Shown here: piece by piece, positions 1 through 59,311 of the stretch
Layout: each line of letters starts with the position of its first letter
How positions within the stretch are numbered: the stretch's first letter is position 1
Source: Patescibacteria group bacterium
Lineage (GTDB): Bacteria > Patescibacteriota > Minisyncoccia > Phycocordibacterales > PALSA-1337
DNA length: 64,000 bases
Direction: 5' to 3'
Assembly (NCBI GenBank): GCA_024654575.1
Contig: JANLHG010000014.1
Coordinates: forward strand, 24,745 to 88,744
The notes under the pieces: model-generated
The model's database searches: none
Told to the model about the DNA's origin: nothing
The model's input: the letters and a program-made list of their open reading frames with translations, nothing else
Position numbers and translations under genes: made by a program

Positions 1-400
1 CTAATTCATTAAATGGTCCAACAACAAAAGAATCAAAGGTATATTTAGGATTAAGATTATCGTCTTTGTTTATATAGTAATCTTGTAAAGGTAATTCCCC
101 ATTCCAAGCTTGAGATGAGTAATTTTGTCCAAAATCTTTTTTGTGGGAGTCTTCTTTAGCTATAATATATTCTAAGGCTCGTATTCTACTATCTATATTT
201 CTTAATAATTTTAATATAGTCTGATGGTATTTATTTAAAAGCCAATCTTTAACAAAAGCGTTCGGAACACTCAAATATATTACTCCTTCATCACTTTTTA
301 GTATAAATGTATCTTTAAACCATGTGCTAAAATTAGCTTTAGAAACAGATAATTCTATTTCTACTAAAATAGAATCCCATAATTTATTTAGATCATTCAT
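1..400 (-). CDS. dnaA: Chromosomal replication initiator DnaA, N-terminal part (partial; gene continues beyond window start)
   Basis: Minus-strand ATG at 400 opens MNDLNKLWDSILVEIELSVSKANFSTWF... and the frame reaches position 1 with no stop. The last residues YTFDSFVVGPFNELA match the classical DnaA YTFDNFVVG motif. The gene is missing from the ORF track because it runs off the edge. It lies divergent from rpmH, the usual origin-proximal arrangement. Confidence 0.8.
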   Translation of the reverse strand, partial: MNDLNKLWDSILVEIELSVSKANFSTWFKDTFILKSDEGVIYLSVPNAFVKDWLLNKYHQTILKLLRNIDSRIRALEYIIAKEDSHKKDFGQNYSSQAWNGELPLQDYYINKDDNLNPKYTFDSFVVGPFNEL

Positions 401-495
401 AAGTACAATTTAGTATATACTGCTCCTTTAAAAAAGAAACTTGTGAAAAGTATATAAATTGTTTATAATGTGTGAACAAGTTGTTTATAATAAAA

Positions 496-630
496 ATGTC
501 ATTCACATACAAACCTAAAAAAAGAAAACGAGCAAGAAGTCATGGATTTTTAAAGAGACAAAGAACCATTGGTGGAAAGAGGGTAGTTTCTAGGCGTAGA
601 GCTAAAGGAAGGAGTAGGGTTACCGTATAA
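496..630 (+). CDS. rpmH: 50S ribosomal protein L34
   Basis: Found by reading the sequence, not in the ORF track. It encodes [44 protein letters not shown] (44 aa), a canonical L34, and sits directly upstream of rnpA. Confidence 0.88.
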
Positions 631-633: not shown

Positions 634-897
634 ATGTCTTCTTTGTTTTTTACCTTTCGAGTTGTTTCAAAAACATTCAAAAAAGGTCGTAAATACGCAG
701 TTGTTATTTCAAAAAAAATAGAAAAGTCTGCTGTAAAAAGGAATTTACTTAAAAGAAGGATTTTTTCTATTCTTAGAGATAATATACCGGAGTCTTTCAA
801 TGGTGCAATTATTGTTTTTCCCAAAAAAGATAGTAATAAATTATCTTTTTCTGACTTAAAAAAAGAACTTTTGTTAAAACATGTCCTTCCTATATAA
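634..897 (+). CDS. rnpA: Ribonuclease P protein component
   Basis: 87-aa basic protein (KRNLLKRRIF motif) in the conserved rpmH-rnpA-yidC order. Confidence 0.8.
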   Translation: MSSLFFTFRVVSKTFKKGRKYAVVISKKIEKSAVKRNLLKRRIFSILRDNIPESFNGAIIVFPKKDSNKLSFSDLKKELLLKHVLPI

Positions 898-1612
898 TAA
901 CTTTGTTTATGAACCTCTCTATAATGGATTAGTATTTCTTATTAGTATTTTGCCGTGGATAGATGTTGGGGTGGCTGTAGCACTTTTCACTGTTATAGTA
1001 AAATTAATATTGTTCCCTCTTTCTTACCGCTCTGTTAAAACACAGGTGAATATGAAAAAGATAGAACCTGAGTTAAACGCTATAAAATTAAAATTTCAAG
1101 ATAAACAAGAACAAGCTAGACAGGTTATGGCTCTCTATAAAGAAAAAAAGGTTAATCCATTTTCAGGTTTTTTTCTTATTTTAATTCAAATTCCTATAAT
1201 TTTTGCCCTTTATTCAATATTTTTACATTCTGGTCTGCCTAGTATAAATATTGATATGTTGTATTCTTTTGTGAAAGCTCCTATTTCTGTTGATATGAAT
1301 TTTTTAGGTTTAATTGATATAGCTAAAAAGAGTATTATTCTTTCTTTATTAGCTGGTATTACACAGTTTTTCCAAATAAAATTTTCTATGCCTAAACCTG
1401 CTATAACTCCTAATAATTCAACGGCTTCTTTTAAAAATGACCTTGCGCGAAGTATGAGTTTCCAGATGCGTTATGTAATGCCTATTATAGTATTTTTTAT
1501 CTCCTATAGTATTTCAGCGGCGATTGCTATCTATTGGTCTGTTAGTAATCTATTTATGATTGGTCAAGAGATATATGTGAGAAGAAAGATAAAAAAACAA
1601 CCCTCTAATTAA
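881..1612 (+). CDS. yidC: Membrane protein insertase YidC/Oxa1 (short form)
   Basis: 243 aa with multiple TM segments and conserved-looking YidC core sequence (LFPLSYRSVKTQVNMKKIEPELNAIKLKF...). It overlaps the rnpA stop. Confidence 0.85.
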   Translation: MSFLYNNFVYEPLYNGLVFLISILPWIDVGVAVALFTVIVKLILFPLSYRSVKTQVNMKKIEPELNAIKLKFQDKQEQARQVMALYKEKKVNPFSGFFLILIQIPIIFALYSIFLHSGLPSINIDMLYSFVKAPISVDMNFLGLIDIAKKSIILSLLAGITQFFQIKFSMPKPAITPNNSTASFKNDLARSMSFQMRYVMPIIVFFISYSISAAIAIYWSVSNLFMIGQEIYVRRKIKKQPSN

Positions 1613-2864
1613 CTTCTAGTCCCCACAACGTCAAATCATTCTTATTTATAAAAATAAGATAGTTATCTTTTTCATCAAGTGAAAGATTTATTGCATCTAT
1701 TTCTTGATTAGTAAGGTCTTTTAATTTTGCTAATTGTGTCAGTTCCCCATTTAGAGTATTAAGTTTCCAGATATCATCACTAAAATGCACCTTACCTTTA
1801 TACCAATCATCTGGATATTCGGCAGTTTTTGAAGATGTTGGATTAGCACAATAAATATCAGTTTTTACAAAATTTCCCCAAACACATTTTTCTGGGAAGG
1901 TTTTTAATAGAAGAGCTTCTTTTTCACCAGTTTTTACATCATAAAGCTGTAGGCTAAAATCATTTTGATTAGATTGACTATAAAGTATCTTATTTCCATC
2001 ACTATTAGCTAAAGTTGTTAGTCCTCTAATTTCTCCGATAGCTTTACTATAGTTACCGGTTTTTGTATTTAAAAAATAGGCATAACCAGAACTTTCTGCT
2101 GAGGGTTTGGTTGTGATGAGTATTTCACTGTCACTAAACCACTGTGTTAACCAGTTTTTAAAAGGAGAACTAAATATTTCTGTCTTTTGTGTTCCGTCTG
2201 CTTTAGAAATAATTCCATTTATTCCATTGCTATTTTCTTGAGTATAGAACATAAAATCTTTTTTAGGAGAAATACTGATTTGTTTTATGTCTTTTGGTAA
2301 AAAATTTCCAGTAACTGTTGTTTGCATGACGTTAATTAATGCAGTGGAGGTTGCGTTTTTTATAGGGATTATTTTTCCATAATAGCTTTCAATATAACTT
2401 TCGTCATCATTGGCGTATCTTATTACGAAGGAATTATTGTTTACCCATAAAGCTTCGTATATTTTAGGTATGGTTATGTTTGATATTCTAGTTTGATTTA
2501 AAGAATCGCTAACCGCTTGATAGATGTGTCCCGTTCCCCGCTCTGTGTAACGAATAGCTGTGGTACTTCCATTCCCTGTTGAAAAAGCTATAGCTCCCGC
2601 TGTTGGAACGATAGAAATCTGTCGGAGTTTTGGAACAGAAGTGCCGTTTGCTGTTTGGTAATTATCAGAATTATTAGCTGTTCCGTTTTCAGAAGAACTT
2701 ACTGAGTTTCCATTTCCGAATGGAAAGATATTTTTTGTGGTGCTAGCTATTTTTTCAGGTGTGGGTGTTACTCCTTTGTTTAAATAATAATAGATAAAAC
2801 TAAGGAATCCTCCCAGTATGATGATTGCCAATATGATTATTAAAAATACACTTTTTTTAGACAT
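1605..2864 (-). CDS. Hypothetical membrane-anchored extracytoplasmic protein (last gene of the T4SS-like operon)
   Basis: N-terminal TM helix (FLIIILAIIILGGFLSFIYYYL) followed by a Ser/Thr/Asn-rich region and a large domain with no recognisable motif. Its stop is convergent with yidC. Confidence 0.4.
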   Translation of the reverse strand: MSKKSVFLIIILAIIILGGFLSFIYYYLNKGVTPTPEKIASTTKNIFPFGNGNSVSSSENGTANNSDNYQTANGTSVPKLRQISIVPTAGAIAFSTGNGSTTAIRYTERGTGHIYQAVSDSLNQTRISNITIPKIYEALWVNNNSFVIRYANDDESYIESYYGKIIPIKNATSTALINVMQTTVTGNFLPKDIKQISISPKKDFMFYTQENSNGINGIISKADGTQKTEIFSSPFKNWLTQWFSDSEILITTKPSAESSGYAYFLNTKTGNYSKAIGEIRGLTTLANSDGNKILYSQSNQNDFSLQLYDVKTGEKEALLLKTFPEKCVWGNFVKTDIYCANPTSSKTAEYPDDWYKGKVHFSDDIWKLNTLNGELTQLAKLKDLTNQEIDAINLSLDEKDNYLIFINKNDLTLWGLEVN

Positions 2865-2872
2865 TATTTTAT

Positions 2873-3622
2873 TTAATGAAAACTGCTATCTAAAGAAGAT
2901 TGAGTCTTTTCTGTTTCAAGTTGTTGCCTATTTTGTATTGATTGGTCTATATCTATTCCCGCTTGTCGTGCTTCGGTTCTAATTTGGTCTGCTTCTTTTG
3001 TAAAACCTTCTAACATTAATTTATCAGCTGCAGTGCGAGATTCTATACTAATTTGTATTTTAAGTGTTGTAGCTTTTGAATAGTCTTTATTTTTTATAGC
3101 TTCTATTGCTGCTATTTTGTTATTACCGATTTTCCCTATATTTATTCCTAAATCACGAGTAGCTTGAGCTTGTTTTTCTAGAATTGCTTTAATTTCCGGA
3201 TCTTTTTCTAATAATGCTTGTCTTTCTAAATTTTCTGCATTAAGTCGTTCGATTTTTATTTGATCATTTAATGCTTTTTGTAAGTTTATTGCTTCCGAAG
3301 GAGGGTCTATTTTTATAGTAAGTTTATCAATTTCTAGATTTGAAAAATCAACCAGTTTTGGATTTATAGTATAAAGCAAAAGCCAAGCGCTGAGAGTCAA
3401 AAGAAGTCCTAATATCGCGTCCCATATCCTTTTTTTACCGTCTAATTTCATAGCTGGTATCCCAGACAGCATATATTCTAACCCCCCCCAAACAATCATA
3501 AGAATAGCAAAAGCAATAGCTATACCAATGCTAATTTTAAATATTGCACTCAGATAGGTAGATAAATCTGTAACAATGTTGTCTTTTATGAAAGGTAATG
3601 GTGCTAAAAGTTGATAATCCAT
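2873..3622 (-). CDS. Hypothetical protein with two TM segments plus a C-terminal coiled-coil (possible VirB2/pilin-like or VirB8/VirB10-like component)
   Basis: Two hydrophobic helices (ISIGIAIAFAILMIVWGG and ILGLLLTLSAWLLLY) followed by a charged heptad-rich tail. Operon context only; no motif-level identification. Confidence 0.35.
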   Translation of the reverse strand: MDYQLLAPLPFIKDNIVTDLSTYLSAIFKISIGIAIAFAILMIVWGGLEYMLSGIPAMKLDGKKRIWDAILGLLLTLSAWLLLYTINPKLVDFSNLEIDKLTIKIDPPSEAINLQKALNDQIKIERLNAENLERQALLEKDPEIKAILEKQAQATRDLGINIGKIGNNKIAAIEAIKNKDYSKATTLKIQISIESRTAADKLMLEGFTKEADQIRTEARQAGIDIDQSIQNRQQLETEKTQSSLDSSFH

Positions 3623-3626
3623 TTTA

Positions 3627-4319
3627 TTATTTTACTCCAAAATTAACTTTAAAATTAAATCTTGTTTTCTGAAAAAAATCTACGGTATTATTTACAACCA
3701 AAGAAATATCAGAACTACCAACAGTATCCCCTTCATGTCTTAAGATAATACTTCTATCAGTGTTGTCTGCAACATTCCCATTATTTATACTCCACTCATA
3801 TTCTAAATTATTTTTACCTGTTACATCTGTAGAGAAAAAATATGGTGATGCTAATAATACTATTTCGTCTTTAGAAAGAGCCAACGGTGAAGTTATGGCT
3901 TTATTATATAATATTCCGTAGAGAGGATCATCTTCATATATTATTGGTTCGGGATTTCTTGCTGATAGAGTGATGTCTTTTGTTGCTTTTAAACCATCTT
4001 CTGCGGTACTCACTTCTACTTCAATGGTAGTTGGTTTTGATAGAACCGTACCTTTGAAAGTATAACTATCTTTCCCGAGACCAGATAAACTTCCTAAAAC
4101 TTTGTAGTCCTGTTTCCAAGTGTATATCAAATTATTTGATTTAATACTCGGTACGGCTACAACTGTCACTGTTGATTGGGTGGTGTACAGAGCTTTTCCT
4201 TTATAAAAAGGTGGTGTGTAGGTATTTGTTTGCCAAAGTAAATCTACATAATTTGCTGTTTGAGCATATGTAGGTAAAGCTATTATAAGTAACAAAAAAA
4301 GAGAAATAATTCTATACAT
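3627..4319 (-). CDS. Hypothetical secreted protein (signal peptide)
   Basis: N-terminal signal-like sequence MYRIISLFLLLIIALPTYAQ, Thr/Ser-rich. No identifiable domain. Confidence 0.4.
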   Translation of the reverse strand: MYRIISLFLLLIIALPTYAQTANYVDLLWQTNTYTPPFYKGKALYTTQSTVTVVAVPSIKSNNLIYTWKQDYKVLGSLSGLGKDSYTFKGTVLSKPTTIEVEVSTAEDGLKATKDITLSARNPEPIIYEDDPLYGILYNKAITSPLALSKDEIVLLASPYFFSTDVTGKNNLEYEWSINNGNVADNTDRSIILRHEGDTVGSSDISLVVNNTVDFFQKTRFNFKVNFGVK

Positions 4320-4333
4320 TACAACCTATTTTA

Positions 4334-4639
4334 TCATAGTTTCTCCTCAGCTCTAACACTCATCCATGTGTATATCACGTCTCCAGACCAAGCGGGTAAG
4401 GCGTCGAGTAATGGAATTTCTTCTATTAGGAATGATAAACAGAGAGCCAAAATTCTATTTTTACTAAGTTTTACTCCTCGCATTAAAAAATAAAGCACCA
4501 AAGACATACCCATTACAATATCAATAAGGCGATTAGGTACAAGAAAAGGTGTAAGAAATACTTGTATTGTATCAACAGTAGCTGTGGCCCCAAGTACTAA
4601 CCCCCATTCCACATTTCCTATTTTTGATTTATTAGCCAT
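4334..4639 (-). CDS. Small integral membrane protein
   Basis: 101 aa with about 3 hydrophobic helices. Its start overlaps the VirB4-like stop by 8 nt. Confidence 0.35.
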   Translation of the reverse strand: MANKSKIGNVEWGLVLGATATVDTIQVFLTPFLVPNRLIDIVMGMSLVLYFLMRGVKLSKNRILALCLSFLIEEIPLLDALPAWSGDVIYTWMSVRAEEKL

Positions 4640-6446
4640 TTGATGCTAGTTCTTGTTTAGCTTTTTTAATTTCCAAAATTTGAGAAGGATTGGTAGTAAT
4701 GATTTGGTCCTCAGTGTAAGAAGCGATAATTTTAATAGCCACGTGTTTTAATCCCACGAAGAATATCCCCTCACCTATATCTGATTCAAGGAGTAGATAC
4801 TTTTCTTCGTCTGTCAGATTAAATGTTCTTTGGATGTTATCTATTGATGACGGTGACTGTTTTAGAAGAATTTGAATTGAAGAGTTGGTTATAATAGGTA
4901 ATCCGTAAGGTGATTTTAGAAAATCATCTACGTCCTGTGTGATGGTTGCAAGTCCTAGGTAATATTTTCTCCCTCTTTTCGCTAATCCAAGGAGGAAAGA
5001 TGCTGTATCTTCAGATTTCATCATCCACCACGCTTCATCAATCACTAAAAGGCGTTTTTTAAGATTTTTACGAATAGCATTCCAAATATAATGAGTAACA
5101 ATATACATCGCCACTGGTTTTAATTCGTCTTCCATATCTCGTAATGAAAAAACAATAAATTTTTTATTGATATCAACATTAGTTGGACGGTTAATGAAGC
5201 CAGACCAAGTTCCTTTTGTATATTTTGAAAGTCGTTGCACAAGCGATTCGGCACCTTCCATTCCAGCTAGTACCAATTCAAAATCCGACATAAGTGGCGG
5301 TTCTACATTAGCAAAATCTGATTCAGGAGAGATATCTTTAAGTGCGTATGTTTCAGTTATGGCTCTATCAATAATTGCATCTTCTTCTTGTGAAAGTCCT
5401 CCGAGCATAATTCTAAAAAGTCCCACAAGGTTGATTATGTTTGAACGAAGGACATCGGCCGATGATTCATCTTCTCTAGCTACAGGCAAATCAAACGGAT
5501 TGATATGATGTTCGGAATTAAGAGAAATATTAAAATATTTTCCTCCAGTGGCCTCTGCCATATACTCGTATTCTTTTTCTGGGTCAATAACAATAACTTC
5601 TGTATCAAACATAAGAGTTCGTAGAATTTCTAGTTTAGTAGCATATGATTTTCCAGCTCCAGCTTTGGCAAAAGTCACAGAATTGTAGTTTTCTAAAAGA
5701 AATCGGTCAAAAAGCACTAAACTTGAATTATGACGATTAATACCATATAAAATTCCCTTATCTGAAGTCAAGTCAAAAGAAACGAAAGGAAATATTGAAG
5801 ATAACGGCGATGAATTGAGTTTTGAGTGAACACTTAATTCATCTGTGGCTATAGGGAGGACACTTTTATATCCCTGTTCCTGTTGAAATAGAGCTGGTTT
5901 TAGATAGACAAGTTTTGCTTCAAGTATTGATTTAATTTCCGATTCAATTTTATCTAATTCCCCATCGCTATCTCCGTATAGAGTAATATAAACACCAACA
6001 TCAAAAATCTTTTCCTGCGCTTGCATAAGATTATCTCGCAAACTTTCAAGATCTCTGTATGCTGTGTCGAGCATTGGGTCTCTCACTAATCCCTTTTCTT
6101 CTCTCACATTAATCTGACTTTGTACTTCTGCCACCTTTTTCTGAAATTGACGAAGGACTTTTGCTGTTTCAACAGGATGAATAAAAATTGAAATATTAAA
6201 TACCTTATCTAAATTGATAATTGGAGCGAACCATGAATCGGAAAGATATCGTGGGTATGAGATAACGAAAAATGTTCTAGCTATTTTTTCTCCTAAATTT
6301 ATTTCTTTTGGTGTTATTTTAAGAGCAGATGGTGCAATAATATCTTTCAATTCCAAAACACCCGCCTCATATATTTCTTGAGGTAAAATAGAAGTTATTT
6401 GAGGTGCTTCTTCCTTTTTTCCAAAAATTTTATTTAAAAATGACAT
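4632..6446 (-). CDS. VirB4/TrbE/CagE-family type IV secretion ATPase (C-terminal ATPase portion)
   Basis: Walker A FAKAGAGKSYATK and the family-typical Walker B LLVIDEAWWMM (DEAW). Size and motif spacing fit VirB4. Confidence 0.75.
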   Translation of the reverse strand: MSFLNKIFGKKEEAPQITSILPQEIYEAGVLELKDIIAPSALKITPKEINLGEKIARTFFVISYPRYLSDSWFAPIINLDKVFNISIFIHPVETAKVLRQFQKKVAEVQSQINVREEKGLVRDPMLDTAYRDLESLRDNLMQAQEKIFDVGVYITLYGDSDGELDKIESEIKSILEAKLVYLKPALFQQEQGYKSVLPIATDELSVHSKLNSSPLSSIFPFVSFDLTSDKGILYGINRHNSSLVLFDRFLLENYNSVTFAKAGAGKSYATKLEILRTLMFDTEVIVIDPEKEYEYMAEATGGKYFNISLNSEHHINPFDLPVAREDESSADVLRSNIINLVGLFRIMLGGLSQEEDAIIDRAITETYALKDISPESDFANVEPPLMSDFELVLAGMEGAESLVQRLSKYTKGTWSGFINRPTNVDINKKFIVFSLRDMEDELKPVAMYIVTHYIWNAIRKNLKKRLLVIDEAWWMMKSEDTASFLLGLAKRGRKYYLGLATITQDVDDFLKSPYGLPIITNSSIQILLKQSPSSIDNIQRTFNLTDEEKYLLLESDIGEGIFFVGLKHVAIKIIASYTEDQIITTNPSQILEIKKAKQELASNG

Positions 6447-6447
6447 A

Positions 6448-7092
6448 TTAATTTACTTGAATTGGTTTTTCTAAATCACCAGGATTAAAGATTTTATAAA
6501 ATAGTTCAACGATTTCTTCTGTTCCTAACTGAACTACTCTTACTCCACATCGTACTAGCCCCTGTTCCACTACCGACATTCTTTGTTCAAGTTGACTTCT
6601 ATTTTCTTCAAAATCTTCCACTTTTTCTTTGGCCATGTCTTTAGAATCAGTTTTTTTACCAAATACATTCCCGATGACACTTTTTTTACCCTGTAAAACA
6701 GATGGAGAATAAGGAATTACTATAAAAAAACTTTTCGTCATAATATTTGAGCTTTCTGTAAAGGCCTTTATAAATTCAATATATTCTCGCGTTTGAATTT
6801 TCATCAGTTCCCCCACTTGTTCTTTGTAACGGTCCTCTAAAAGGGCTATATATGGTCGTATATCTAGTTTTTTTGATTGAACTACTATTTGCACAGAAAA
6901 ATCTAACGAGTTTAGAAAATTTTGAAATTGAAAAATTATAGAATTTTGTTCATCTGCTGATTTTAGAGCAAAATTCAAAGACGAAGCCATTATAATGGAA
7001 CGCATTGAGCCATCCTTAAGGACTACAATTCCGTCACGCACTTCTTTAATTGGAACGAAATCTTGTGTGGTTTTTGATGATGTGCTTGCCAT
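6448..7092 (-). CDS. Hypothetical protein, possibly the detached N-terminal domain of the VirB4-like ATPase
   Basis: Its stop codon (6448-6450) is 1 nt from the ATG of the 604-aa ATPase gene. The two products sum to about 818 aa, the usual VirB4 length. The protein has no Walker motifs. Confidence 0.35.
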   Translation of the reverse strand: MASTSSKTTQDFVPIKEVRDGIVVLKDGSMRSIIMASSLNFALKSADEQNSIIFQFQNFLNSLDFSVQIVVQSKKLDIRPYIALLEDRYKEQVGELMKIQTREYIEFIKAFTESSNIMTKSFFIVIPYSPSVLQGKKSVIGNVFGKKTDSKDMAKEKVEDFEENRSQLEQRMSVVEQGLVRCGVRVVQLGTEEIVELFYKIFNPGDLEKPIQVN

Positions 7093-7101
7093 TTGTTTTT
7101 A

Positions 7102-7545
7102 TTATACCTTATTTTTCTTAGACTCGTTGTACATTTCTTTTACTCCGGGTGTAGAAACTTCATTTATATCTAAACTCCACGTCAGATCTTTTAATTTGCT
7201 ATCTGAAAGTTTTGGTATGAAAACAGATGGTTGTGAGGCCTCGTCTTTTTTATGGACAATTTTTCTATCTTCCTTTTTCCATATGTATAATTTATTTCCC
7301 AGTGCATATTTTACTGCTGATTCAACAATTGAAATGAACGGTTTGCTATTTATTTTATAAAAAGCTAAGGCCAGTGAAAATCCAATCACTATCGCTATGA
7401 TAGGCAATGCAATGTAAATGTATAAAATAGCGTAAATTATATAAGATAGACCCGCTCCCCCAGCAAGATAAATGAACTGTTTTAGAGTCAATGGTCCGAA
7501 TATTTTATCTTCTATTTCTATAAATTGTGGTACTTGAAATTTCAT
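7102..7545 (-). CDS. Small two-TM membrane protein, VirB3/PrgI-like by position
   Basis: 147 aa with two adjacent TM helices (LAGGAGLSYIIYAILYIYIALPIIAIVIGFSLALAFY), located just upstream of the VirB4-like genes as VirB3-like proteins are in Gram-positive-type T4SS. Confidence 0.4.
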   Translation of the reverse strand: MKFQVPQFIEIEDKIFGPLTLKQFIYLAGGAGLSYIIYAILYIYIALPIIAIVIGFSLALAFYKINSKPFISIVESAVKYALGNKLYIWKKEDRKIVHKKDEASQPSVFIPKLSDSKLKDLTWSLDINEVSTPGVKEMYNESKKNKV

Positions 7546-7556
7546 AAATTAGATTA

Positions 7557-8126
7557 TTATATTTTATTAATAGGTTCACGATATGGGTCTACTTTGTACT
7601 CTTTTTTCGTTACAGGTGCAGCAAGTATGCTATCTATTTTTTTCAAATATGCAGGTCCTTCAACTTTATTAGGAGCAGGCAATTCATTTCTAGTATCAAT
7701 AATGGCTTCCACTTTCTTTTCTTCTTTTTTCACTTCAAATGATTCTTCTCTAGCCAAAACTGGATTTTCTATCTCATCAAGAATTTGTTCTTTGGAAATG
7801 GGTTCTTCAGAGTTATTATCTTGCATAAAATGACGAACTGATAATAATATTTTTTCATTTGCCTCTGATGCAATTTTTTCTGCGTCTGATCTAGATATTT
7901 CAAGCCTATTCTCAATATTTTTTATGTAATCATTTGGTTTTGTAATACCCAACATCAGTAATCTTGTTTCGCTATCTAATTCTCCAATTTGGTCTATATG
8001 TAAATTAAATTCTTTTCCAATTTCAATTAGATTTTCATACACTTTAGGTGAAGTGATCGCTTTTTGGAATTCTTCAGGCAGATTTTTTAATGTTGTTTTT
8101 GTATCCATATTTTTGTTTAATACCAT
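7557..8126 (-). CDS. Hypothetical cytoplasmic acidic protein
   Basis: 189 aa with no TM segment and no motif. Placed here by operon context only. Confidence 0.35.
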   Translation of the reverse strand: MVLNKNMDTKTTLKNLPEEFQKAITSPKVYENLIEIGKEFNLHIDQIGELDSETRLLMLGITKPNDYIKNIENRLEISRSDAEKIASEANEKILLSVRHFMQDNNSEEPISKEQILDEIENPVLAREESFEVKKEEKKVEAIIDTRNELPAPNKVEGPAYLKKIDSILAAPVTKKEYKVDPYREPINKI

Positions 8127-9940
8127 ATACCTCGTGCCCCTGGACTATTTACATAACCGTATGCACTGTGGCCGACAGGAATCAATGTCGCTAACGCTCG
8201 TCTATCTGCAAAAGCAAGGTCTTCCATATCTTTAACTTGAGATGTTTTAAGATGAGATACTACGATGGGGTTTGTAAAGTTAGGAGTTCCTAAACTAACA
8301 ATTTCTTTTCCGGTCATTTTTGAAATAATATTTTTTACTGTAGTTGAGTCACCGCTGCCGATAGCATTAATAAGTAATTGTCTTTTGGCATTTTTAATTG
8401 TAATTTTATCTGCTTCTGATCTTTCACCTTTTTCTATTTCATCTAATTCTCCTTTACCTAAATGCTGGGTGACTAATGGATTGGTAATTGTTTTGGTGTC
8501 TAGTTGTGCTTTTTCTTTAGTACTCATTTTATCTAGAGCATCTTTTACTGCAGTTGCGTTACCGGTAGCCATCGCCACTTTTAGATCTTTAACTCTGTCA
8601 ATGATGCGTTGTTTTGTGGCAACATCTTTTCCTTGCTTAACGCTATCAATTCTTGATTTTGAACTTCCAAATTTAGCACTAGCTAATGCTCCTGTGCTTA
8701 TTTGACGAAGAGATCGTCCGGCAACACTATTCCCAAATGATGTATTTTCAAGTGCTTTGTCTAATGAATGACCAACTCTACCAACCGTATTCCTTCCCAC
8801 AAATCCCTGACCCATTTTTCTTAATGATTGCCCCCACCCCTTTAGTGTACTTGCTCCCTGAACTCCTAGTTTATCAGCAATAATTAAACCAGCGATTAAG
8901 AAAATAATAACTATTAGAAAATTGAGAATAACCACCACCGAACTAGCTCCTGTTCCAGCTCCGCCTGAGAATGCTTGATTGAATGTAGGGCTGACATCAG
9001 ACCCGCCATTTAAAACCTTTTTGAAAGTCGGGTCACTTAAGATTCTTATACCTATGTAAGTGACTAAAAGATAGGCAGGTGCGAATATAGCTTGTTTATG
9101 AAGAGTACTCCACCATTGGTCAGCATAAGACTTTGTTCCCGGTAATACTCCGCTTACATAAGCTAGTGGAGAAAGAGCCATAAGAATAATGAGAACGACT
9201 ATGCGAATAGCAAAAAGAACTGCTGCGGCGAAAAATACGAAAGCAGCTACAAGCATTACGATTGAACCCATAATTGTGGTTGTAAAGATGTGTTTATTAT
9301 CAATACCAGTAGGTGCTCCTCCAGCGAGTTGAGTTGGTTGATTGTAATCTAAAGTGGTTTGGATCCATAGTTGTTGCATAAAGACATCTGAAAGACAGCC
9401 ATCAGCACATTCTTCAGCATTAGGTGTCATTGCATTGTAGAATTGTAGAGCTACTATGTTTGATGCATCAATAATTATCTTGGTGAAGAATAAACTGAAG
9501 TTTATAAGAAGTCCTGCAATGACAATATTGACCAACAGTTTTTTTGTGCCCAGTCCGTCAAGTCCTAAAATCATTGAAATAGCTTGATAGATGATAAGGA
9601 AAATGAAAAACATTGTGGCAAAATCCCGCACTGTTTTCCAAGCGAGAGTAATAGCTGGTATTTGTGCTACTAATGTGGAAATATTTAGTGTCCATTTGAG
9701 AGAATAATTTAGAAGAATACCAGCAATCCATAATACTTTACTAACAAGAGTCATAATGACATTTCCAATTATTCCAGAAGCATTTTCTATGGCACTTTTC
9801 CCGATATCACCTATAGTAAACCAATCACCAATTCCAGCGTAAGTAATTTGTGGAAAAATAATAGTATAATTGGCTACTAGAATAAAGAGAACTATGAAAA
9901 TGTATATTAGTATTTTTTTCATCGTATTAATAGCTGACAT
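8117..9940 (-). CDS. VirB6/TrbL-like polytopic membrane protein with a repeated hydrophilic C-terminal tail
   Basis: Signal peptide followed by at least 6 TM helices over about 380 aa, then a hydrophilic tail. The tail contains two copies of a roughly 45-aa repeat (...TAVKDALDKMSTKEKAQLDTKTITNPLVTQHL / ...TTVKNIISKMTGKEIVSLGTPNFTNPIVVSHL). Confidence 0.5.
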   Translation of the reverse strand: MSAINTMKKILIYIFIVLFILVANYTIIFPQITYAGIGDWFTIGDIGKSAIENASGIIGNVIMTLVSKVLWIAGILLNYSLKWTLNISTLVAQIPAITLAWKTVRDFATMFFIFLIIYQAISMILGLDGLGTKKLLVNIVIAGLLINFSLFFTKIIIDASNIVALQFYNAMTPNAEECADGCLSDVFMQQLWIQTTLDYNQPTQLAGGAPTGIDNKHIFTTTIMGSIVMLVAAFVFFAAAVLFAIRIVVLIILMALSPLAYVSGVLPGTKSYADQWWSTLHKQAIFAPAYLLVTYIGIRILSDPTFKKVLNGGSDVSPTFNQAFSGGAGTGASSVVVILNFLIVIIFLIAGLIIADKLGVQGASTLKGWGQSLRKMGQGFVGRNTVGRVGHSLDKALENTSFGNSVAGRSLRQISTGALASAKFGSSKSRIDSVKQGKDVATKQRIIDRVKDLKVAMATGNATAVKDALDKMSTKEKAQLDTKTITNPLVTQHLGKGELDEIEKGERSEADKITIKNAKRQLLINAIGSGDSTTVKNIISKMTGKEIVSLGTPNFTNPIVVSHLKTSQVKDMEDLAFADRRALATLIPVGHSAYGYVNSPGARGIWY

Positions 9941-11505
9941 TGTTGCAGTTTTATATTTGCTTGGCTTTCAAGAACGGCCATTTTTGTAATAATATCATCT
10001 CTGTCTACTTCTGAATTTACCACTGCTGTAGTATCGTGAAGAATTTGATTTTGAATAATATTTTGGTAATCAGAAGTGGGTGTCACAGTATCATTTACAG
10101 TTTTGGCATTGTTTATCAGAGTTTTAGTATTGTTTAATTTTATAAGATTATCATTTGAATCAGAAACATCTTTAAGTAAAGGCTCTGCTAAAGGAGTGAT
10201 GGATTGGGCAATCATATCCCCTATTTCAACTATTTGAGCTTGAGTGAATGCTGTAGAAGATTTTTGTTGGTAACAACTCTGAGCACTGACTAGAAGATTT
10301 TTTGCTTTTATAACCGCTGAAAGCGAAGCGTTCTTATTTTGGTTGTAAGTTGTTTCTTCTTTTATTGAAGCATCAATGCCTTTAATGGATTCTGTTTTTA
10401 TATTTTGTAAAGCTTGAATATCTTCAGGGCTTTGTTGTTGAGATATTTTATTTATATATGAGGTGCTGTCAAAACTTCCTGACCCGCTTGTACCTTTTAA
10501 TCCGCTTCCTCCAGTAATTACCGTTTTGATTAATTGAGCAAAAAGGGCGTTCACAATTTCATTAAATTCATCAGCTAGTTCAAGTTGTCTAACTCCAGAC
10601 CCTAAAACGTTTTCTAATCCGCTTTCTATGACCGTACCTGGAGTTTGAATTTCGCAATGTTCTTCTGCTACATACCCTTCACCTGTGCCCTCAAAAGATC
10701 GCTCTGGTCCAGTATATGTTCCTTCTCCTGTTCCCTGATCTGGTCGCTCTTCAGTATTTTCACGGCCGGTTTTTTTACAAGACTTCCATGAAAGAAATCC
10801 TTTACCCCAATCAATTTCTGATTTTCGTGCTGCTTGTTTATTAGCAATTCTTAACGAAAGTTCTTCTTCTGCTAAAAGAGAAGCACCGATGTAATTATTT
10901 TGTGGTTCTTGAGTTAATGAAAGCCAATTTCCCCAACCGCCATTGCTAAAGTTGCCTTTTATAAAACTATTATTAAACCCATTTCCTGCATTTGTGGCAT
11001 TATTTACAATATCAGTAAACGTACAAGTAATTTTTTGTTTAAAAGGACGATATCTAAAAGCTAAAGCGATACGAATATCTATACTAAAAGGTTTACAAAG
11101 AAAATTAAGGTCAGACGAACCCTCTATAAACTTCCCTATCTCTTGGTCAGCTATGTCTACAAACATTCCTGCTGGGTCGGTAACGAAAGATGGGTTGCCG
11201 TCAAAGCCAGAGTTTATCCAGTTGACTATACTCGTGGTCATCTGACGAATAATAGCTTTAGCAATGTACCACGCGATGCCGTCCAAAACGGTTTCTTTGT
11301 ATTGCAAAGCATATTGATAAATATTTGAAGTGACACTTTTAGTTGCCGTTATGGTATTTTGGATAAGATTAGTGGGGTCAAATGTAATGTCTCCTATACC
11401 AAACAAAGCTTCACTTTTTTTAGGATATGATAAAAAAGTAGTAGGAATAACGAGAGAAATTACAAGTATGAAGCTTATTATTTTTTTATTTAATAAATTA
11501 AACAT
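9919..11505 (-). CDS. Hypothetical secreted protein (signal peptide; Gly/Thr-rich central region; N/Q/S/T-rich C-terminus)
   Basis: N-terminal hydrophobic segment KKIISFILVISLVIPTTFLSY. No catalytic motif recognised. Confidence 0.4.
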   Translation of the reverse strand: MFNLLNKKIISFILVISLVIPTTFLSYPKKSEALFGIGDITFDPTNLIQNTITATKSVTSNIYQYALQYKETVLDGIAWYIAKAIIRQMTTSIVNWINSGFDGNPSFVTDPAGMFVDIADQEIGKFIEGSSDLNFLCKPFSIDIRIALAFRYRPFKQKITCTFTDIVNNATNAGNGFNNSFIKGNFSNGGWGNWLSLTQEPQNNYIGASLLAEEELSLRIANKQAARKSEIDWGKGFLSWKSCKKTGRENTEERPDQGTGEGTYTGPERSFEGTGEGYVAEEHCEIQTPGTVIESGLENVLGSGVRQLELADEFNEIVNALFAQLIKTVITGGSGLKGTSGSGSFDSTSYINKISQQQSPEDIQALQNIKTESIKGIDASIKEETTYNQNKNASLSAVIKAKNLLVSAQSCYQQKSSTAFTQAQIVEIGDMIAQSITPLAEPLLKDVSDSNDNLIKLNNTKTLINNAKTVNDTVTPTSDYQNIIQNQILHDTTAVVNSEVDRDDIITKMAVLESQANIKLQQCQLLIR

Positions 11506-11514
11506 GATTTTTTA

Positions 11515-12495
11515 TCATTGACTCGATACTCGTCCGAAAACATATCCCTCATCACTTGGTAAAAACGGTATTTTTTGTTGTACGACAAAATTTTTCAAAT
11601 CTTCCAGTGTTTGAGCGAAAAGAGGTAGAATATCGCCGTAGTGACCAAAACCTTTTAGAGAAAAAAGAGGGTCTGAGTACATCGTTCTCATTGACTTAAT
11701 GGTCGATATCATATCGCTTAAACTATTTAGTAAAGCAATTTGAACATTAACAGCACTTGGAGGCACTTTTATTTTTAAAGAATATGAAAGGATATCGCTG
11801 TAACTTTTAATCAATGGGTCAAGTTCTTTTATTTCATCTGGATTATTATGTAACATACTGTCTTGTGCAATAATCGCCGGATCTTTGCTTGAGATTGAAT
11901 AAGTCATAAGTATATGTGCCATTTCATTGGCGTATTGTTTAATAGATGATTCATTATCGGTACTTAATTGCAAATCTTTTTTACTATAAATACCTGTATT
12001 AACGTCAAGGTTTTGATTTTGTAAAATGTTTTGTACTAAACCAGTTTGATTATTGATATCCATTGGAACCCCACCCTGTTTCATAGTCATATATTTACTG
12101 AAGATACTTCTAGCAAATTTATCTGTTTCGGATAAATTAGATTGAGAGACTCCTGTATTTTTTGGTTCTAAAGGATGATCAGCCAAACTATCGTTTGGTC
12201 CAGGAATGGTTGGGTTTCTTCCCTCTTTTACTTCTTGACCATCGGGTATCTTATCTCCGTCAGAGTCCTGATTATGTAAGTCAGTTTTCCAGAGTGTCTC
12301 TTCCCAATCTTTCAATCCATCATTGTCAGAATCTTTATTAGCTAGTTCATTAAAAGTTTTTTCATTTGCAGTTATTGTTGCTAGTGAGTCAATTTTTTGA
12401 GGAATATTATTATAATGAACCAACACAAAAATCCCTCCGAGAACAAATGTAGAGGTAATAAAAACAATACCAATTTTTTTGTGGCTTATAATCAA
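11515..12495 (-). CDS. Membrane-anchored protein with thrombospondin-type-3-like Ca-binding DxDxDG repeats
   Basis: N-terminal TM helix followed by DSDNDGLKDWEE and DSDGDKIPDGQE motifs. First gene of the operon. Confidence 0.4.
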   Translation of the reverse strand: MIISHKKIGIVFITSTFVLGGIFVLVHYNNIPQKIDSLATITANEKTFNELANKDSDNDGLKDWEETLWKTDLHNQDSDGDKIPDGQEVKEGRNPTIPGPNDSLADHPLEPKNTGVSQSNLSETDKFARSIFSKYMTMKQGGVPMDINNQTGLVQNILQNQNLDVNTGIYSKKDLQLSTDNESSIKQYANEMAHILMTYSISSKDPAIIAQDSMLHNNPDEIKELDPLIKSYSDILSYSLKIKVPPSAVNVQIALLNSLSDMISTIKSMRTMYSDPLFSLKGFGHYGDILPLFAQTLEDLKNFVVQQKIPFLPSDEGYVFGRVSSQ

Positions 12496-12542
12496 AATAT
12501 TTTTTGGTTCTACTCTCTATTATAGCAAGTAAACTGTGGATT

Positions 12543-13340
12543 TTATGTGGATAAGATGTTGAAAGTAATATCTTTCCACTGAGCTAATGTTATAGTTTCT
12601 GCTCGAGCTGTTAAAGGAATTAAAAGTTTATCAAAAATATTGACAATTTTTTGTTTTTCTGTGATTTTTTCCAAATTATTTACTAAAAATTTTCTTTTGT
12701 GAGCAAATCCAGCTTTGACAACATCAAAAAACCCTTTTTCATCAAAATTATCAAAAAACTTTTTGGAAATATCATCAATAAGTAAAATTGCGGAATCAAC
12801 TCTCGGGATAGGAGAAAAAAATTTAGCTTTTATGGTATTGATGTATTTGGGATTTCCGTATGCTTTGACACTTATTGATAAAATACTTTCCTTTCCATCC
12901 TTTGAACATATTCTTTGAGCTACTTCTTTTTGCACCATAAGCACCATAAGTTTTGGTTGAATATTATTTGTAAGAAATTGGCGAATTACCTCACCTGTTA
13001 TGTAATATGGGATGTTTGCTACAAGCTTGTAACATGAAGTATGAAGCATGAAGCGTGAAGGATTAAATTCAAGAATATCGGCGTTTACAAATTCAAATTT
13101 ACCTTGAGTAATGAAATCAGCAAATTTTTCTTTAAGAAAATTGGTCAATCTATCATCTTTTTCAACAGCAACTACCTTCGCACCAGTTTGAAGTAATTGT
13201 TCGGTTAAAATGCCTTTACCAGGCCCTATTTCTAGGATTGTATCATTGGAGATTACACCTCCAGCTGATATTATTTCACGAACTGCCCCTTTAGATTTAA
13301 GGAAGTTTTGTCCTAAAGATTTTTTTGAATGAAATTGCAT
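12543..13340 (-). CDS. ksgA: 16S rRNA (adenine1518/1519-N6)-dimethyltransferase
   Basis: SLGQNFL signature and the LEIGPGKGILT SAM-binding motif. Confidence 0.85.
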   Translation of the reverse strand: MQFHSKKSLGQNFLKSKGAVREIISAGGVISNDTILEIGPGKGILTEQLLQTGAKVVAVEKDDRLTNFLKEKFADFITQGKFEFVNADILEFNPSRFMLHTSCYKLVANIPYYITGEVIRQFLTNNIQPKLMVLMVQKEVAQRICSKDGKESILSISVKAYGNPKYINTIKAKFFSPIPRVDSAILLIDDISKKFFDNFDEKGFFDVVKAGFAHKRKFLVNNLEKITEKQKIVNIFDKLLIPLTARAETITLAQWKDITFNILST

Positions 13341-13341
13341 A

Positions 13342-15267
13342 TTAGAAATCTATAAAAATTGCTTTGACACCTGTTTGTACGGAAGAATTTGTTTGGTCAG
13401 TATCTAATAATTCTTCATCAATATCGCTTATGAATTGTGACATAGTATTTGCTTTTTTTGAACCAAAAATAGTACGCATATGTGCATAAGTAAGATATAT
13501 TTTTTTTCTTGCTCTAGTAAGAGCAACATAAAATAATCTTCGCTCTTCTTCTGCCTCTTCATCATTTACTTCGCTTTCATTAAATTTTTTATGAGGGAAA
13601 AGGTCTTCTTCAAGTCCAACAATAAATACATGGTCAAATTCTAGTCCTTTTGCACTATGCACAGTCATTAATTTTACAGCTTCTTGATTTTTTTCCAACT
13701 CGTCTTGGTCTGACGCCAGTGCTGCGTCTTCTAGAAGTTTTTCCATTCCATCACCAAGGGGTAATAAGTCATATTTTGTAGCGAGTGTTACCAATTCTCT
13801 TATGTTTTCGAGTCTTTCCTGATCTTCTTCGGTTCCATTTTTTAAAATTTTTTCTAAACCACTTTCTTGAAGAATAAATTTAATAATTTCTGATGGTTTA
13901 TTTTTTAAAACCATTTCTTTTATTTTTAGTAATAACATTCTAAAGTCGGTAATTCTTTGTCTCATTGCACCGGTTAATTCAGTTTCTTTTCCTGATAAGA
14001 TTTTGAGCAAACTTACTTTTCCAATTCCTCGAGGAGGTACATTTATAATTCTTCTTATATCCACTAAACTCTCTGGATTAAGTCCTGCTCGAACGAAAGA
14101 GAGTATATCTTTTATTTCTTTTCTTTCAAAAAATCTTGTTCCCAAAATTTGATAAGGCACGTTTTTAGAGAGGAACAATTCTTCAAGTGCTCGTGACTGA
14201 AAATTGGCTCTGTAGAGCACTGCAATCTCTTTTGGTGATATATTACTTGCTATCAAATCTCTACTAGTATCTGCAACAAAGCGTGCTTCCTCTATTTCAT
14301 CATATCCAGCATAGACAGTCACTTTTTCTCCCTCTTCATTTTCAGTGAATAATCTTTTTTCTCTTCGCATAGTATTTTTTTCAATGATGCGGTTTGCTAC
14401 TGTTAAAATAGTTTGTGTTGAGCGGTAATTTTGTTCAAGTAAAATAACTTTTGCATTCGGGTAATCTTTTTCAAAGTTTAGTATATTTTCTATAGTAGCT
14501 CCTCTCCAGCTATAAATCATTTGATCAATATCTCCAACACAACAAATATTTTTATGTTTTTCAGATAAAAGTGTAGCTATTTCATATTGTGTTTTGTTAG
14601 TATCTTGATATTCATCTATGTGAATGTATTGCCAAATATTTTGGTAGTATTCTCTAACTTCTTTATTATTTTTTAATAAAAAAGCAGTTTTAACTAATAA
14701 ATCGTCAAAATCTAAAGCATTTTCTTTTTTTAAAATCATTTCATATCGTTTCCATATATCTGAAACAACTTTTGTGAAATATCCTTTATTTTTATCTTGA
14801 TATTGTTCCAGACTTATCATATCTCCTTTATTGCGAGATATGATGCTTATAATTTTAGCTGGTTCGTATTGTTTAGGGTCTAATCCTGCTTCTTCTAAAG
14901 CGTCTTTAATAGCTCGTTTGGAGTCATTTTTATCATAAATAGTAAAATTTCTAATTATTCCTAATATTCGTGAATTTTCTTTTAATATATGAACACCTAG
15001 AGAGTGAAAGGTGCTCATAAAGGGTTTTTCTTGATTATTGATCTCTAAAAGTTTGTCAACTCTTTCCCTCATTTCTTTAGCTGCCTTGTTTGTAAAAGTA
15101 ATGGCCAAAATTGACCTCGGGTCTATTCCACTATTGATTAAATTCAAAATTCTATGTGTAATAGTTTTTGTCTTTCCAGCTCCCGCTCCTGCAATGATTA
15201 AAAGAGGTCCATTTTTATGCATTACCGCCTCTTTCTGCTCTTTGTTAAGCCCTTTTGTGTGATCCAT
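13342..15267 (-). CDS. pcrA: UvrD/PcrA-family ATP-dependent DNA helicase
   Basis: Walker A AGAGAGKTKTITHR and UvrD-like motifs throughout 641 aa. Confidence 0.85.
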   Translation of the reverse strand: MDHTKGLNKEQKEAVMHKNGPLLIIAGAGAGKTKTITHRILNLINSGIDPRSILAITFTNKAAKEMRERVDKLLEINNQEKPFMSTFHSLGVHILKENSRILGIIRNFTIYDKNDSKRAIKDALEEAGLDPKQYEPAKIISIISRNKGDMISLEQYQDKNKGYFTKVVSDIWKRYEMILKKENALDFDDLLVKTAFLLKNNKEVREYYQNIWQYIHIDEYQDTNKTQYEIATLLSEKHKNICCVGDIDQMIYSWRGATIENILNFEKDYPNAKVILLEQNYRSTQTILTVANRIIEKNTMRREKRLFTENEEGEKVTVYAGYDEIEEARFVADTSRDLIASNISPKEIAVLYRANFQSRALEELFLSKNVPYQILGTRFFERKEIKDILSFVRAGLNPESLVDIRRIINVPPRGIGKVSLLKILSGKETELTGAMRQRITDFRMLLLKIKEMVLKNKPSEIIKFILQESGLEKILKNGTEEDQERLENIRELVTLATKYDLLPLGDGMEKLLEDAALASDQDELEKNQEAVKLMTVHSAKGLEFDHVFIVGLEEDLFPHKKFNESEVNDEEAEEERRLFYVALTRARKKIYLTYAHMRTIFGSKKANTMSQFISDIDEELLDTDQTNSSVQTGVKAIFIDF

Positions 15268-15498: not shown

Positions 15499-16476
15499 TT
15501 GCTTTTGTTGATTATGATAGTTCCTTTTCAAGTTCAGGCAGGTTTTTTGTCTTTTGTTTCTGGTTTTTTTGGTAATACTAAAGTAGAAGCGGATACTACA
15601 AATGAGCCAAACTCTCAGAATATGGCTTTGCTTCACGCTGCTATAAATACAGATCCAAATCTTTCTAAAGGTACAAGTGAGATTGTTATTGTTGGAGGTA
15701 GTGCTCTTTTATCTGAAAATGGACCTCTAGGAACAACTGCTGACATACAGGAAGAACATATCAATACTCAAATTAGTGTTTACGTGGTCAGAGAAGGTGA
15801 TTCTTTAAGTAGAATCGCCCAACTTTTTAATGTGTCTGTTAATACTATTTTGTGGGCGAATGATTTACCTACAGGATCAAATATCCAACCAGGACAGACA
15901 TTGGTTATTCTTCCGGTCTCAGGTATTAAATATGCGGTTAAAAAAGGTGACACAATTGAGTCTATAGCTAAAAAATATAAAGCAGATGTTGACGACGTGT
16001 TAAGTTATAACGGTTTTGCTAAAAATACTCAGTTAGAAATAGGTAATGAATTGATTATTCCTGATGGCGAGATAGCTTCAGTTACCAAGAATGTAGTATC
16101 AAAAAAATCTAAAAGCAGTCTGCCTGGTTATTCAGGATATTATATGCGTCCGATTACTGGTGGGTATAGAACACAAGGAATTCATGGTTATAATGGCGTA
16201 GATCTTGCTGATTCAATTGGTACACCTGTTTTTGCAGCTGCAGATGGTATAGTCATTATAAGTAAATCAGGTGGTTGGAATGGTAGTTATGGAAGTTATA
16301 TAGTAATCTCACATCCGAATGTTACTCAAACACTGTATGCACACTTAAGCGGTAATATTGTGTCAGTTGGCGATTCTGTAAAGAAGGGTCAACTTATAGG
16401 ACTGGTAGGTTCAACAGGTCGTTCTACAGGTCCTCATGTTCACTTTGAAATTCGTGGAGCAGTTAATCCTTTTTAA
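15499..16476 (+). CDS. LysM-domain peptidoglycan M23 metalloendopeptidase
   Basis: Signal peptide, two LysM-like segments (EGDSLSRIAQLF..., KGDTIESIAKKY...), and an M23 core (GVDLADSIGTPVFAAADG ... HVHFEIR). Confidence 0.8.
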   Translation: MLLLIMIVPFQVQAGFLSFVSGFFGNTKVEADTTNEPNSQNMALLHAAINTDPNLSKGTSEIVIVGGSALLSENGPLGTTADIQEEHINTQISVYVVREGDSLSRIAQLFNVSVNTILWANDLPTGSNIQPGQTLVILPVSGIKYAVKKGDTIESIAKKYKADVDDVLSYNGFAKNTQLEIGNELIIPDGEIASVTKNVVSKKSKSSLPGYSGYYMRPITGGYRTQGIHGYNGVDLADSIGTPVFAAADGIVIISKSGGWNGSYGSYIVISHPNVTQTLYAHLSGNIVSVGDSVKKGQLIGLVGSTGRSTGPHVHFEIRGAVNPF

Positions 16477-20752: not shown

Positions 20753-20754
20753 AA

Positions 20755-41776: not shown

Positions 41777-41830
41777 ATACTAATCATATATCATGAAGCT
41801 TGAAACATGAAGCGTTTGCTTTTTTAATAA

Positions 41831-42124: not shown

Positions 42125-42196
42125 GCTCTCATCGTTCAATGGATAGGACATAACTTTGCGGAAGTTAAAATGTAGGTTCGATTCCTACTGGGAGCA
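42125..42196 (+). tRNA. tRNA-Arg (anticodon GCG)
   Basis: Acceptor GCTCTCA/TGGGAGC, anticodon stem TAACT/AGTTA with loop TTGCGGA. D-loop and T-arm are identical to tRNA-Arg(TCT) at 46378. Confidence 0.8.
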
Positions 42197-42206
42197 CAAC
42201 TAGCGT

Positions 42207-59217: not shown

Positions 59218-59277
59218 TGTAATTGTAATTTATTCTAACTTTACTCTTTTTTACATTTTTTTCAAGCACGAAAAAAC

Positions 59278-59302: not shown

Positions 59303-59311
59303 GATAAAATC

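Follow-up and report, generated by a model that had tools for sequence, protein, structure and literature searches.

A chromosomally fixed type IV secretion locus, probably derived from monoderm conjugation machinery, beside dnaA in a Paceibacteria genome

A search of 3,035 Patescibacteria genomes found VirB4 in 2,417 of them, nearly all in one monophyletic clade nested within the MPF-FATA type IV secretion systems (T4SSs); genes for TrsD, PrgI/VirB3, VirB6, and a VirB2-like pilin (PF18895) lie near virB4, the pilin being the feature that separates this clade from other monoderm T4SSs, and relaxases are almost absent (Quinonero-Coronel et al. 2025, Microb Genom, PMC12102498). VirD4 homologues, which occurred in 2,918 Patescibacteria genomes, were for the most part encoded far from virB4, and in Paceibacteria and Microgenomatia the commonest virB4 neighbors were dnaA, dnaN, rnpA, ksgA, and rpmH (PMC12102498). 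In Southlakia epibionticum, the T4SS cluster SEML1_0006-0019 is essential for epibiotic growth by transposon sequencing (Wang et al. 2023, Cell, PMC10633639). Here, we describe a T4SS locus of eleven genes at positions 1605-12495 of a 64,000-nt stretch (contig JANLHG010000014.1, positions 24,745 to 88,744; hereafter the window) from an ultra-small Patescibacteria genome (Paceibacteria/Parcubacteria). By its gene content and sequences, the locus matches the MPF-FATA-derived Patescibacteria T4SS clade and would belong to the relaxase-less, origin-proximal type already described in 2023 and 2025, so that its billing in the original prediction, made from the sequence alone, as a poorly described candidate system is out of date. 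We conclude that it is very probably a chromosomally fixed derivative of monoderm conjugation machinery, lying outside any mobile element and serving contact-dependent exchange with a host.

The eleven open reading frames (ORFs) all lie on the minus strand between yidC and ksgA, with inter-ORF spacing of -22 to +14 nt in the ORF list, exactly as the original prediction had placed them:

1605-2864, minus strand: 419-aa protein, N-terminally anchored (transmembrane, TM, residues 6-24)
2873-3622, minus strand: VirB2-like T4SS pilin, with the pilin domain at residues 18-85, a TM hairpin with a basic loop
3627-4319, minus strand: 230-aa secreted protein with two tandem Ig-like beta repeats of ~100 aa each
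4334-4639, minus strand: 101-aa small membrane protein with 2-3 hydrophobic segments, overlapping the virB4 stop by 8 nt
4632-6446, minus strand: VirB4 ATPase C-terminal part, 604 aa (linker plus P-loop motor domain)
6448-7092, minus strand: detached TrsD/TraC-like N-terminal domain of VirB4, a soluble protein of 214 aa whose ORF stops 1 nt short of the virB4 start
7102-7545, minus strand: PrgI/VirB3-like protein, 147 aa, a two-TM hairpin encoded two genes upstream of virB4
7557-8126, minus strand: 189-aa acidic soluble protein, encoded between virB6 and prgI
8117-9940, minus strand: VirB6/TrbL-like polytopic membrane protein, 607 aa
9919-11505, minus strand: 528-aa secreted or N-terminally anchored protein with a hydrophobic N-terminal segment, encoded directly upstream of virB6
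11515-12495, minus strand: 326-aa N-terminally anchored protein with thrombospondin type 3 (TSP3) repeats at residues ~55-100 and a four-helix bundle at ~120-320

The locus resembles the Patescibacteria-clade T4SSs (PMC12102498) in its monoderm-type VirB4 and in the TrsD-like, PrgI/VirB3, VirB6, and PF18895 pilin genes near virB4; it is also alike in having no relaxase or type IV coupling protein (T4CP) nearby and in its chromosomal site by dnaA, dnaN, rnpA, ksgA, and rpmH, and we see no difference in kind. What is added here is an explicit reading of VirB4 as split, a single pilin with a variable C-terminal extension instead of a pilin array, a gradient of conservation across the operon, a description of six accessory proteins, and the lack of a VirB8 fold among the proteins examined. 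The original prediction had called the operon minimal, and it does lack a relaxase and a coupling protein, but the word understates a system that adds a pilin and a split VirB4.

The Southlakia cluster has the core order VirB6, one further gene, PrgI, the uncharacterized 293-aa SEML1_0009, VirB4, and an exported Ig-like protein, together with PF18895 pilins (PMC10633639). A TrsD homologue adjoins Southlakia VirB4 (PMC12102498), and we take it to be SEML1_0009, which stands at the TrsD position. The two loci are alike in core order, in their PF18895 pilins, in proximity to the origin (the Southlakia genes lie 5-24 kb from the genome start), and in having no recognizable relaxase or T4CP within the cluster. 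Southlakia alone encodes a phage-tail-type lysozyme, an NTF2-like (VirB8-fold) protein, and proteins of 1000-1100 aa, and its pilins form a tandem set of six on the opposite strand, whereas our locus has one pilin, with TSP3, predicted beta-propeller, and Cys-rich proteins in place of Southlakia's others.

The MPF-FATA loci of Bacillota (CTn2/CD11xx, pGO1 Trs, pCF10 Prg, and pCW3 Tcp) likewise have a CD1110-family VirB4 with PrgI immediately upstream, although VirB4 identity is only 30-35%, and the pGO1 subclass also has a separate TrsD next to the VirB4 gene (PMC12102498). Unlike our locus, they carry MobC, a relaxase, VirD4, a large SLT/CHAP hydrolase, and VirB8-fold proteins, reside on mobile elements, and have no pilins (PMC12102498). 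A Clostridium plasmid locus in our comparison (L083) shows this arrangement, with MobC, a relaxase, VirD4, PrgI followed by a fused VirB4, and an SLT hydrolase.

The 604-aa protein, whose VirB4 identity the original prediction had staked on family models, carries Walker A (AKAGAGKS) and Walker B (VIDEAWW) motifs in which G263, G265, K266, S267, D470, and E471 are invariant among 26 orthologues. It passes the Clostridioides-type NCBIfam model NF045971 (VirB4-like conjugal transfer ATPase, CD1110 family) with 372.8 bits against a cut-off of 325 (E=3.3e-111), its residues 31-569 covering positions 185-732 of the 752 in the profile. No other model comes near this score (TraC-F 186, VirB4_CagE 120, Bacteroides TraG 65, and CedB 31 bits). 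The Pfam model P-loop_TraG also matches (E=4.8e-27), and a profile search of the PDB finds the Thermoanaerobacter VirB4 domain 4AG5 at E=1.2e-47 and R388 TrwK at E=6e-5. The closest relatives are in metagenome-assembled genomes labelled Paceibacterota, Parcubacteria, Taylorbacteria, Zambryskibacteria, and Campbellbacteria. None of the plasmid VirB4s in PLSDB is closer than about 35%, the best being from the monoderm Bacillota and Actinomycetota at 30-35% identity.

The first part of VirB4 is encoded by the adjacent 214-aa ORF, for which the original prediction had no family. Its precomputed Pfam assignment is PF26593 ('TraC-like') and its JGI name 'type IV secretory pathway VirB4 component', and it matches the N-terminal parts of several NCBIfam models (VirB4_plasma 99-238, E=8e-13; CD1110 2-119; VirB4_CagE 4-168); the match to NCBIfam TrsD (positions 11-142, E=9.7e-9) has 35 bits, under the model cut-off of 200. 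A profile search of the PDB with this family returned nothing significant. A fused 783-aa VirB4 from a Clostridium perfringens plasmid provides a common frame: hhalign places the 214-aa family on its residues 20-193 (probability 91.7%, E=7.7e-7), and the 604-aa protein covers residues 210-754 with 33% identity (E=1e-84). There was no hhalign signal between the TrsD-like profile and the genome's own 604-aa VirB4, as fits complementary halves rather than paralogues. Judging from these alignments, the 214-aa and 604-aa ORFs are collinear halves of one VirB4. The two-ORF arrangement recurs in 79 of 80 related loci, in which the identity of the TrsD-like protein is 61-75%.

Three further components have counterparts in conjugation machinery. 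The VirB3/PrgI-like assignment made in the original prediction is borne out for the 147-aa protein, which matches Pfam PF12666 (E=7.4e-10, 39.7 bits against a gathering score of 27), has its hydrophobic segments at residues 25-54, and is found in 79 of the 80 loci. The VirB6/TrbL-like protein, also named there, has about seven TM segments and a C-terminal domain of ~250 aa that is hydrophilic and contains an internal repeat; it matches Pfam TrbL (PF04610, E=8e-6), marginally. The pilin, which had been counted among the proteins without a family, matches Pfam T4SS_pilin (PF18895) at E=2.5e-9 (37.5 bits against 26.6) and, weakly, the NCBIfam model of the Mbov_0395 pilin-like conjugal transfer protein. 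Its pilin domain is fused to a charged helical C-terminal extension of ~160 aa, and total length varies from 106 to 628 aa across related loci. There is a single pilin-like ORF in the window, and exactly one in 65 of the 68 related loci with a match.

The genes flanking the operon are core housekeeping genes, as had been predicted:

2-400, minus strand: 5' end of dnaA (DnaA N-terminus; DnaA_N E=1.9e-16), at the window's left edge
495-630, plus strand: rpmH (L34), read by eye
634-897, plus strand: rnpA
881-1612, plus strand: yidC (Pfam 60KD_IMP E=1.1e-43)
12543-13340, minus strand: ksgA (RrnaAD E=2.8e-51)
13342-15267, minus strand: pcrA/uvrD (Pfam)

We identified 531 genomes with a VirB4 relative and compared loci in the best 80 (species-level, ranked by VirB4 match). 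Of these loci, 79 are collinear, the order being pcrA/ksgA, the operon genes, and yidC/rpmH, and then dnaA-dnaN. VirB4 identity in these genomes is 80-90%, with a median of 83% to the window (somewhat inflated by the ranking). The TrsD-like protein has a median of 67% and PrgI one of 57%. Medians for the products of neighboring genes are 61% (L34), 56% (PcrA), 52% (YidC), and 50% (KsgA), and the envelope and accessory proteins have medians of 28-39%. The motor is thus more tightly constrained than the products of the essential genes beside it, and the exposed parts change rapidly. Because 79 of the 80 loci are collinear and VirB4 is conserved above YidC, KsgA, and PcrA, the locus is chromosomally fixed, as the original prediction had held, and is not a remnant of an integrative and conjugative element (ICE).

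A decayed ICE or plasmid remnant, having lost its relaxase and coupling protein and with its genes drifting, would account for parts that descend from conjugation machinery and for the local lack of a relaxase and T4CP. Such a remnant is hardly credible here, however. Gene order and flanks are the same in the 79 species-level genomes, all eleven ORFs and the Walker motifs are intact, and VirB4 is conserved above its essential neighbors. There is no compositional anomaly, the G+C content of the operon equalling that of its flanks in a window that is low in G+C over most of its length (about 0.29-0.36). No integrase or att context bounds the cluster, the flanks in the 79 genomes being dnaA/rpmH/rnpA/yidC on one side and ksgA/pcrA on the other; the closest recombinase gene, XerC/D-like, lies 14 kb off at 26.3 kb and the next, for a serine recombinase, 40 kb off at 52.6 kb, and the sole mobile-element signature begins at a tRNA-His gene, 40 kb away. 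We rejected the remnant explanation on synteny and conservation.

We found no relaxase and no VirD4/TcpA-type coupling protein in the locus, nor did either turn up elsewhere in the 64-kb window, where almost every ORF longer than about 230 aa was scanned with Pfam, and intergenic gaps are at most 47 nt throughout 1605-15267, leaving no room for an origin of transfer (oriT) inside the gene string. The original prediction had noted the lack of VirD4, relaxase, and oriT context and had proposed a domesticated apparatus rather than a conjugative element; our findings support this, and it is already the published conclusion for the lineage (PMC12102498, PMC10633639).

We propose that a VirB4 hexamer would be attached to VirB6, in the single cell membrane, by way of its TrsD-like domain and VirB3, and that the motor could drive either the extraction from the membrane and assembly of the pilin-like subunit or the movement of a substrate across the thin wall. 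Contact with the host would be made by the fast-evolving surface proteins (the predicted beta-propeller, Ig-like repeat, Cys-rich/helical-bundle, and TSP3/four-helix-bundle proteins). Such a machine would serve not conjugation but a contact-dependent exchange with a host cell, be it protein export or some other transfer required by the episymbiotic lifestyle.

Other uses of the same parts deserve consideration. A T4SS-derived machine of the Helicobacter ComB or archaeal Ced type might import DNA for nucleotides or recombination, working with comM and pilMNO. To our knowledge, neither ComB nor Ced has a relaxase or T4CP, which counts in favor of this proposal. The original prediction had suggested DNA uptake from the comM gene and a pilMNO cluster in the window; comM (Mg_chelatase E=1.4e-89) and pilM (E=1.5e-11) are indeed present, whereas pilN and pilO are assigned from position only. 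In class ABY1, comF, recG, and radA lie beside the T4SS (PMC12102498). However, comM is 8 kb and pilMNO 32 kb away from the operon, and these are common housekeeping or type IV pilus genes. The CedB model NF041017 reaches only 30.8 bits, with its cut-off at 700, where the conjugative CD1110 family scores 372.8 bits, and the VirB hits in the locus are better explained by monoderm conjugative families than by ComB. Natural transformation in Southlakia is ComEC-dependent, with comEC deletion abolishing competence while viability is kept (PMC12857230); its T4SS is nonetheless essential, and that essential role is therefore not ComEC-dependent DNA uptake (PMC12857230). The suggestion of DNA uptake thus gains no positive support, and we consider it very unlikely.

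The pilin raises the further prospect of a VirB4-powered surface filament or adhesion organelle, assembling the pilin-like protein and adhesins for host attachment with no cargo. A pilin-domain gene is present here, whereas monoderm T4SSs normally have none (PMC12857230). Four of the unassigned proteins are surface-exposed with modules of the adhesion type (Ig-like repeats, TSP3 repeats, a beta-propeller), and no T4CP is nearby to recruit substrates. Set against this, the translocon parts VirB6 and VirB3 are kept and conserved, type IV pili already provide adhesion in the phylum (PMC12102498), and the long C-terminal extension of the pilin poorly suits a tightly packed filament. We regard a filament alone as unlikely, although it is not an idle idea.

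A bolder proposal is that the Paceibacteria T4SS is an essential conduit of housekeeping rank, working in reverse or both ways and drawing in host macromolecules or lipids for a cell unable to make its own, with a permanently split VirB4 and with the six lineage-specific surface proteins forming a new host-docking structure of monoderms. A motor conserved above adjacent essential genes, the lack of a nearby relaxase or T4CP, and fast-evolving surface parts are compatible with this conduit but do not speak for import in particular, and we think it quite unlikely.

Several observations weigh against our preferred reading, a fixed conjugation-derived machine for contact-dependent host exchange. 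Six of the eleven proteins carry no family assignment, and searches of Pfam and NCBIfam reveal no VirB1-like hydrolase among the eleven genes, nor do Pfam, NCBIfam, or PDB-profile searches match any of the proteins to a VirB8 fold (NTF2-like, of the PrgL, TraM, or TcpC type). The TrbL match of the VirB6-like protein clears its threshold by 0.3 bits (26.2 against 25.9), and TrbL, the sole recurrent family among the VirB6-like orthologues, is matched by 8 of 33, a low share. A true pilus is not assured, as the pilin has a long and variable C-terminal extension that ordinary VirB2 pilins lack. Ranking the loci by VirB4 similarity inflates VirB4 identity somewhat relative to an unbiased sample. 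The scans for VirD4 and relaxase covered the 64-kb window, and a distant copy of either elsewhere in the genome is possible; indeed, VirD4 is unlikely to be absent from the whole genome. Finally, the data on essentiality come only from Southlakia, which belongs to another class (Saccharimonadia) and differs in its accessory genes (lysozyme, NTF2-like protein, and six pilins).

The original prediction had left eight proteins without a family, and with the pilin and the VirB4 N-terminal domain assigned, six remain so. The 419-aa protein is probably an extracytoplasmic beta-propeller, to judge from a weak TolB beta-propeller match of its profile in the PDB (E=0.1) and one orthologue that matches DPPIV_N at 0.003; its gene was detected in 60 of the 80 loci, with a median identity of 35%, and many of the remaining loci are too short to reach it. 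The 230-aa protein has a signal-peptide-like N-terminus that ends in AQ, and it is present in 75 of the 80 loci. An extra N-terminal repeat makes three in 30 of 33 aligned sequences, with two here and in two relatives, and a repeat has apparently been lost or gained within the family; some orthologues show weak Ig_3, PKD_3, or BiPBP_C matches. Orthologues of the 101-aa protein were detected by tblastn in 18 of the 80 loci, and a small ORF stands at the equivalent position in locus L081. The 189-aa protein has no TM segment and an excess of acidic residues (D/E 37 versus K/R 29); it is found in 49 of the 80 loci with a median identity of 30%, and had no match in Pfam or NCBIfam.

The 528-aa protein has a conserved Cys-containing N-terminal domain, and C137, C161, C243, C284, C411, and C523 are invariant across 55 homologues. 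Its AlphaFold2 model has a mean pLDDT of 63.9 and is confident only at residues 360-528, a C-terminal helical bundle for which Foldseek returned only generic helical-bundle matches in the PDB, with E above 0.01. PDB profile searches with the 528-aa and 419-aa families gave coiled-coil noise and the weak TolB match, none of them significant. One orthologue of the 528-aa protein matches PF13605 (DUF4141) at 1.3e-5, and this family is precomputed in about 10 of 120 homologues. In the MPF-B systems of Bacteroides conjugative transposons, DUF4141 genes adjoin traJ and traG, so that both this gene (traI) and ours adjoin a VirB6 homologue, and some 528-aa orthologues share a DUF4141-type N-terminal motif; the MPF-B proteins, however, are short and come from diderm systems, and the window's own match has E=0.14. 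The 528-aa protein may be a counterpart of TraI, a lead for which homology is undemonstrated.

The calcium-binding DxDxDG repeats noted in the original prediction proved to be the TSP3 repeats of the 326-aa protein. The protein's own PF18884 match falls under the gathering score, but most homologues carry PF18884, and the calcium-binding repeats are invariant. Its model contains a confident extracytoplasmic four-helix bundle and not an NTF2/VirB8 fold.

Upstream of the operon, ksgA and pcrA/uvrD share its strand, with gaps of 47 nt and 1 nt, and their placement is kept in related genomes; they probably have housekeeping roles and do not belong to the machine. One further gene may be relevant to the missing hydrolase:

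15499-16476, plus strand: LysM-LysM-M23 peptidase (Peptidase_M23 E=1.2e-29, LysM E=1.8e-25)

This gene is divergent, lies 3 kb upstream of the operon, and occupies the same position in related loci L001, L005, L007, L011, L081, and L082. LysM/M23-containing VirB1 candidates are associated with virB4 in Paceibacteria (PMC12102498). The peptidase is an uncertain candidate for a VirB1-like cell-wall remodeling partner, which the operon itself lacks.

The operon is origin-proximal, as originally described, in the sense that it adjoins dnaA, rpmH, rnpA, and yidC, and full dnaA and dnaN genes are found at the corresponding site in related loci L001 and L081. Between 1.6 and 41.8 kb, almost every gene, those of the T4SS operon included, is encoded on the minus strand and transcribed towards dnaA, and at about 42 kb (41800-42200), gene orientation and GC/AT skew flip sign; GC skew tracks gene orientation along the window. 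An oriC at dnaA would thus leave 40 kb of genes head-on to replication, and alternatively the replication origin may lie near 42 kb. DnaA boxes were not enriched anywhere in the window (19 observed versus 20.6 expected), and a promoter and terminator scan gave counts near the shuffle expectation and was uninformative.

Elsewhere in the window, an island of higher G+C content (0.41-0.43, versus about 0.32 elsewhere) spans 52601-64000 and runs off the window's end. It starts with these features:

52601-52675: tRNA-His
52643-54301, minus strand: large serine recombinase abutting the tRNA-His gene

The island also carries a Toprim/primase-like 727-aa protein, an N6/N4 DNA methyltransferase (59642-61441), and several ORFs with no family. 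It looks like an integrated mobile element or prophage-like island, separate from the T4SS locus; no att repeat for it was found within the window. A Fic-domain protein (51163-52071) is encoded just before the island, and an ORF6N/KilA-N-type DNA-binding protein (20240-22317) directly beside comM; both are possibly mobile-element-derived or toxin-like genes in an otherwise housekeeping stretch. A 188-aa protein encoded at 27221-27787 consists almost wholly of ~8-aa repeats of the type GD(V/I)(S/T)N(I/T)xG, with Pfam matches of the low-complexity or coiled-coil type only.

A large part of the bacterial diversity still uncultivated consists of Patescibacteria, which depend on host cells, and their T4SS is the first of its secretion superfamily to be shown essential for the bacterium that carries it. 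The locus described here opens no new question alone; it is a clean and compact Paceibacteria example of this system and a useful reference for structural or genetic work. The gradient of identity along it, from 83% in the motor to ~30% at the surface, marks the proteins that probably face the host.

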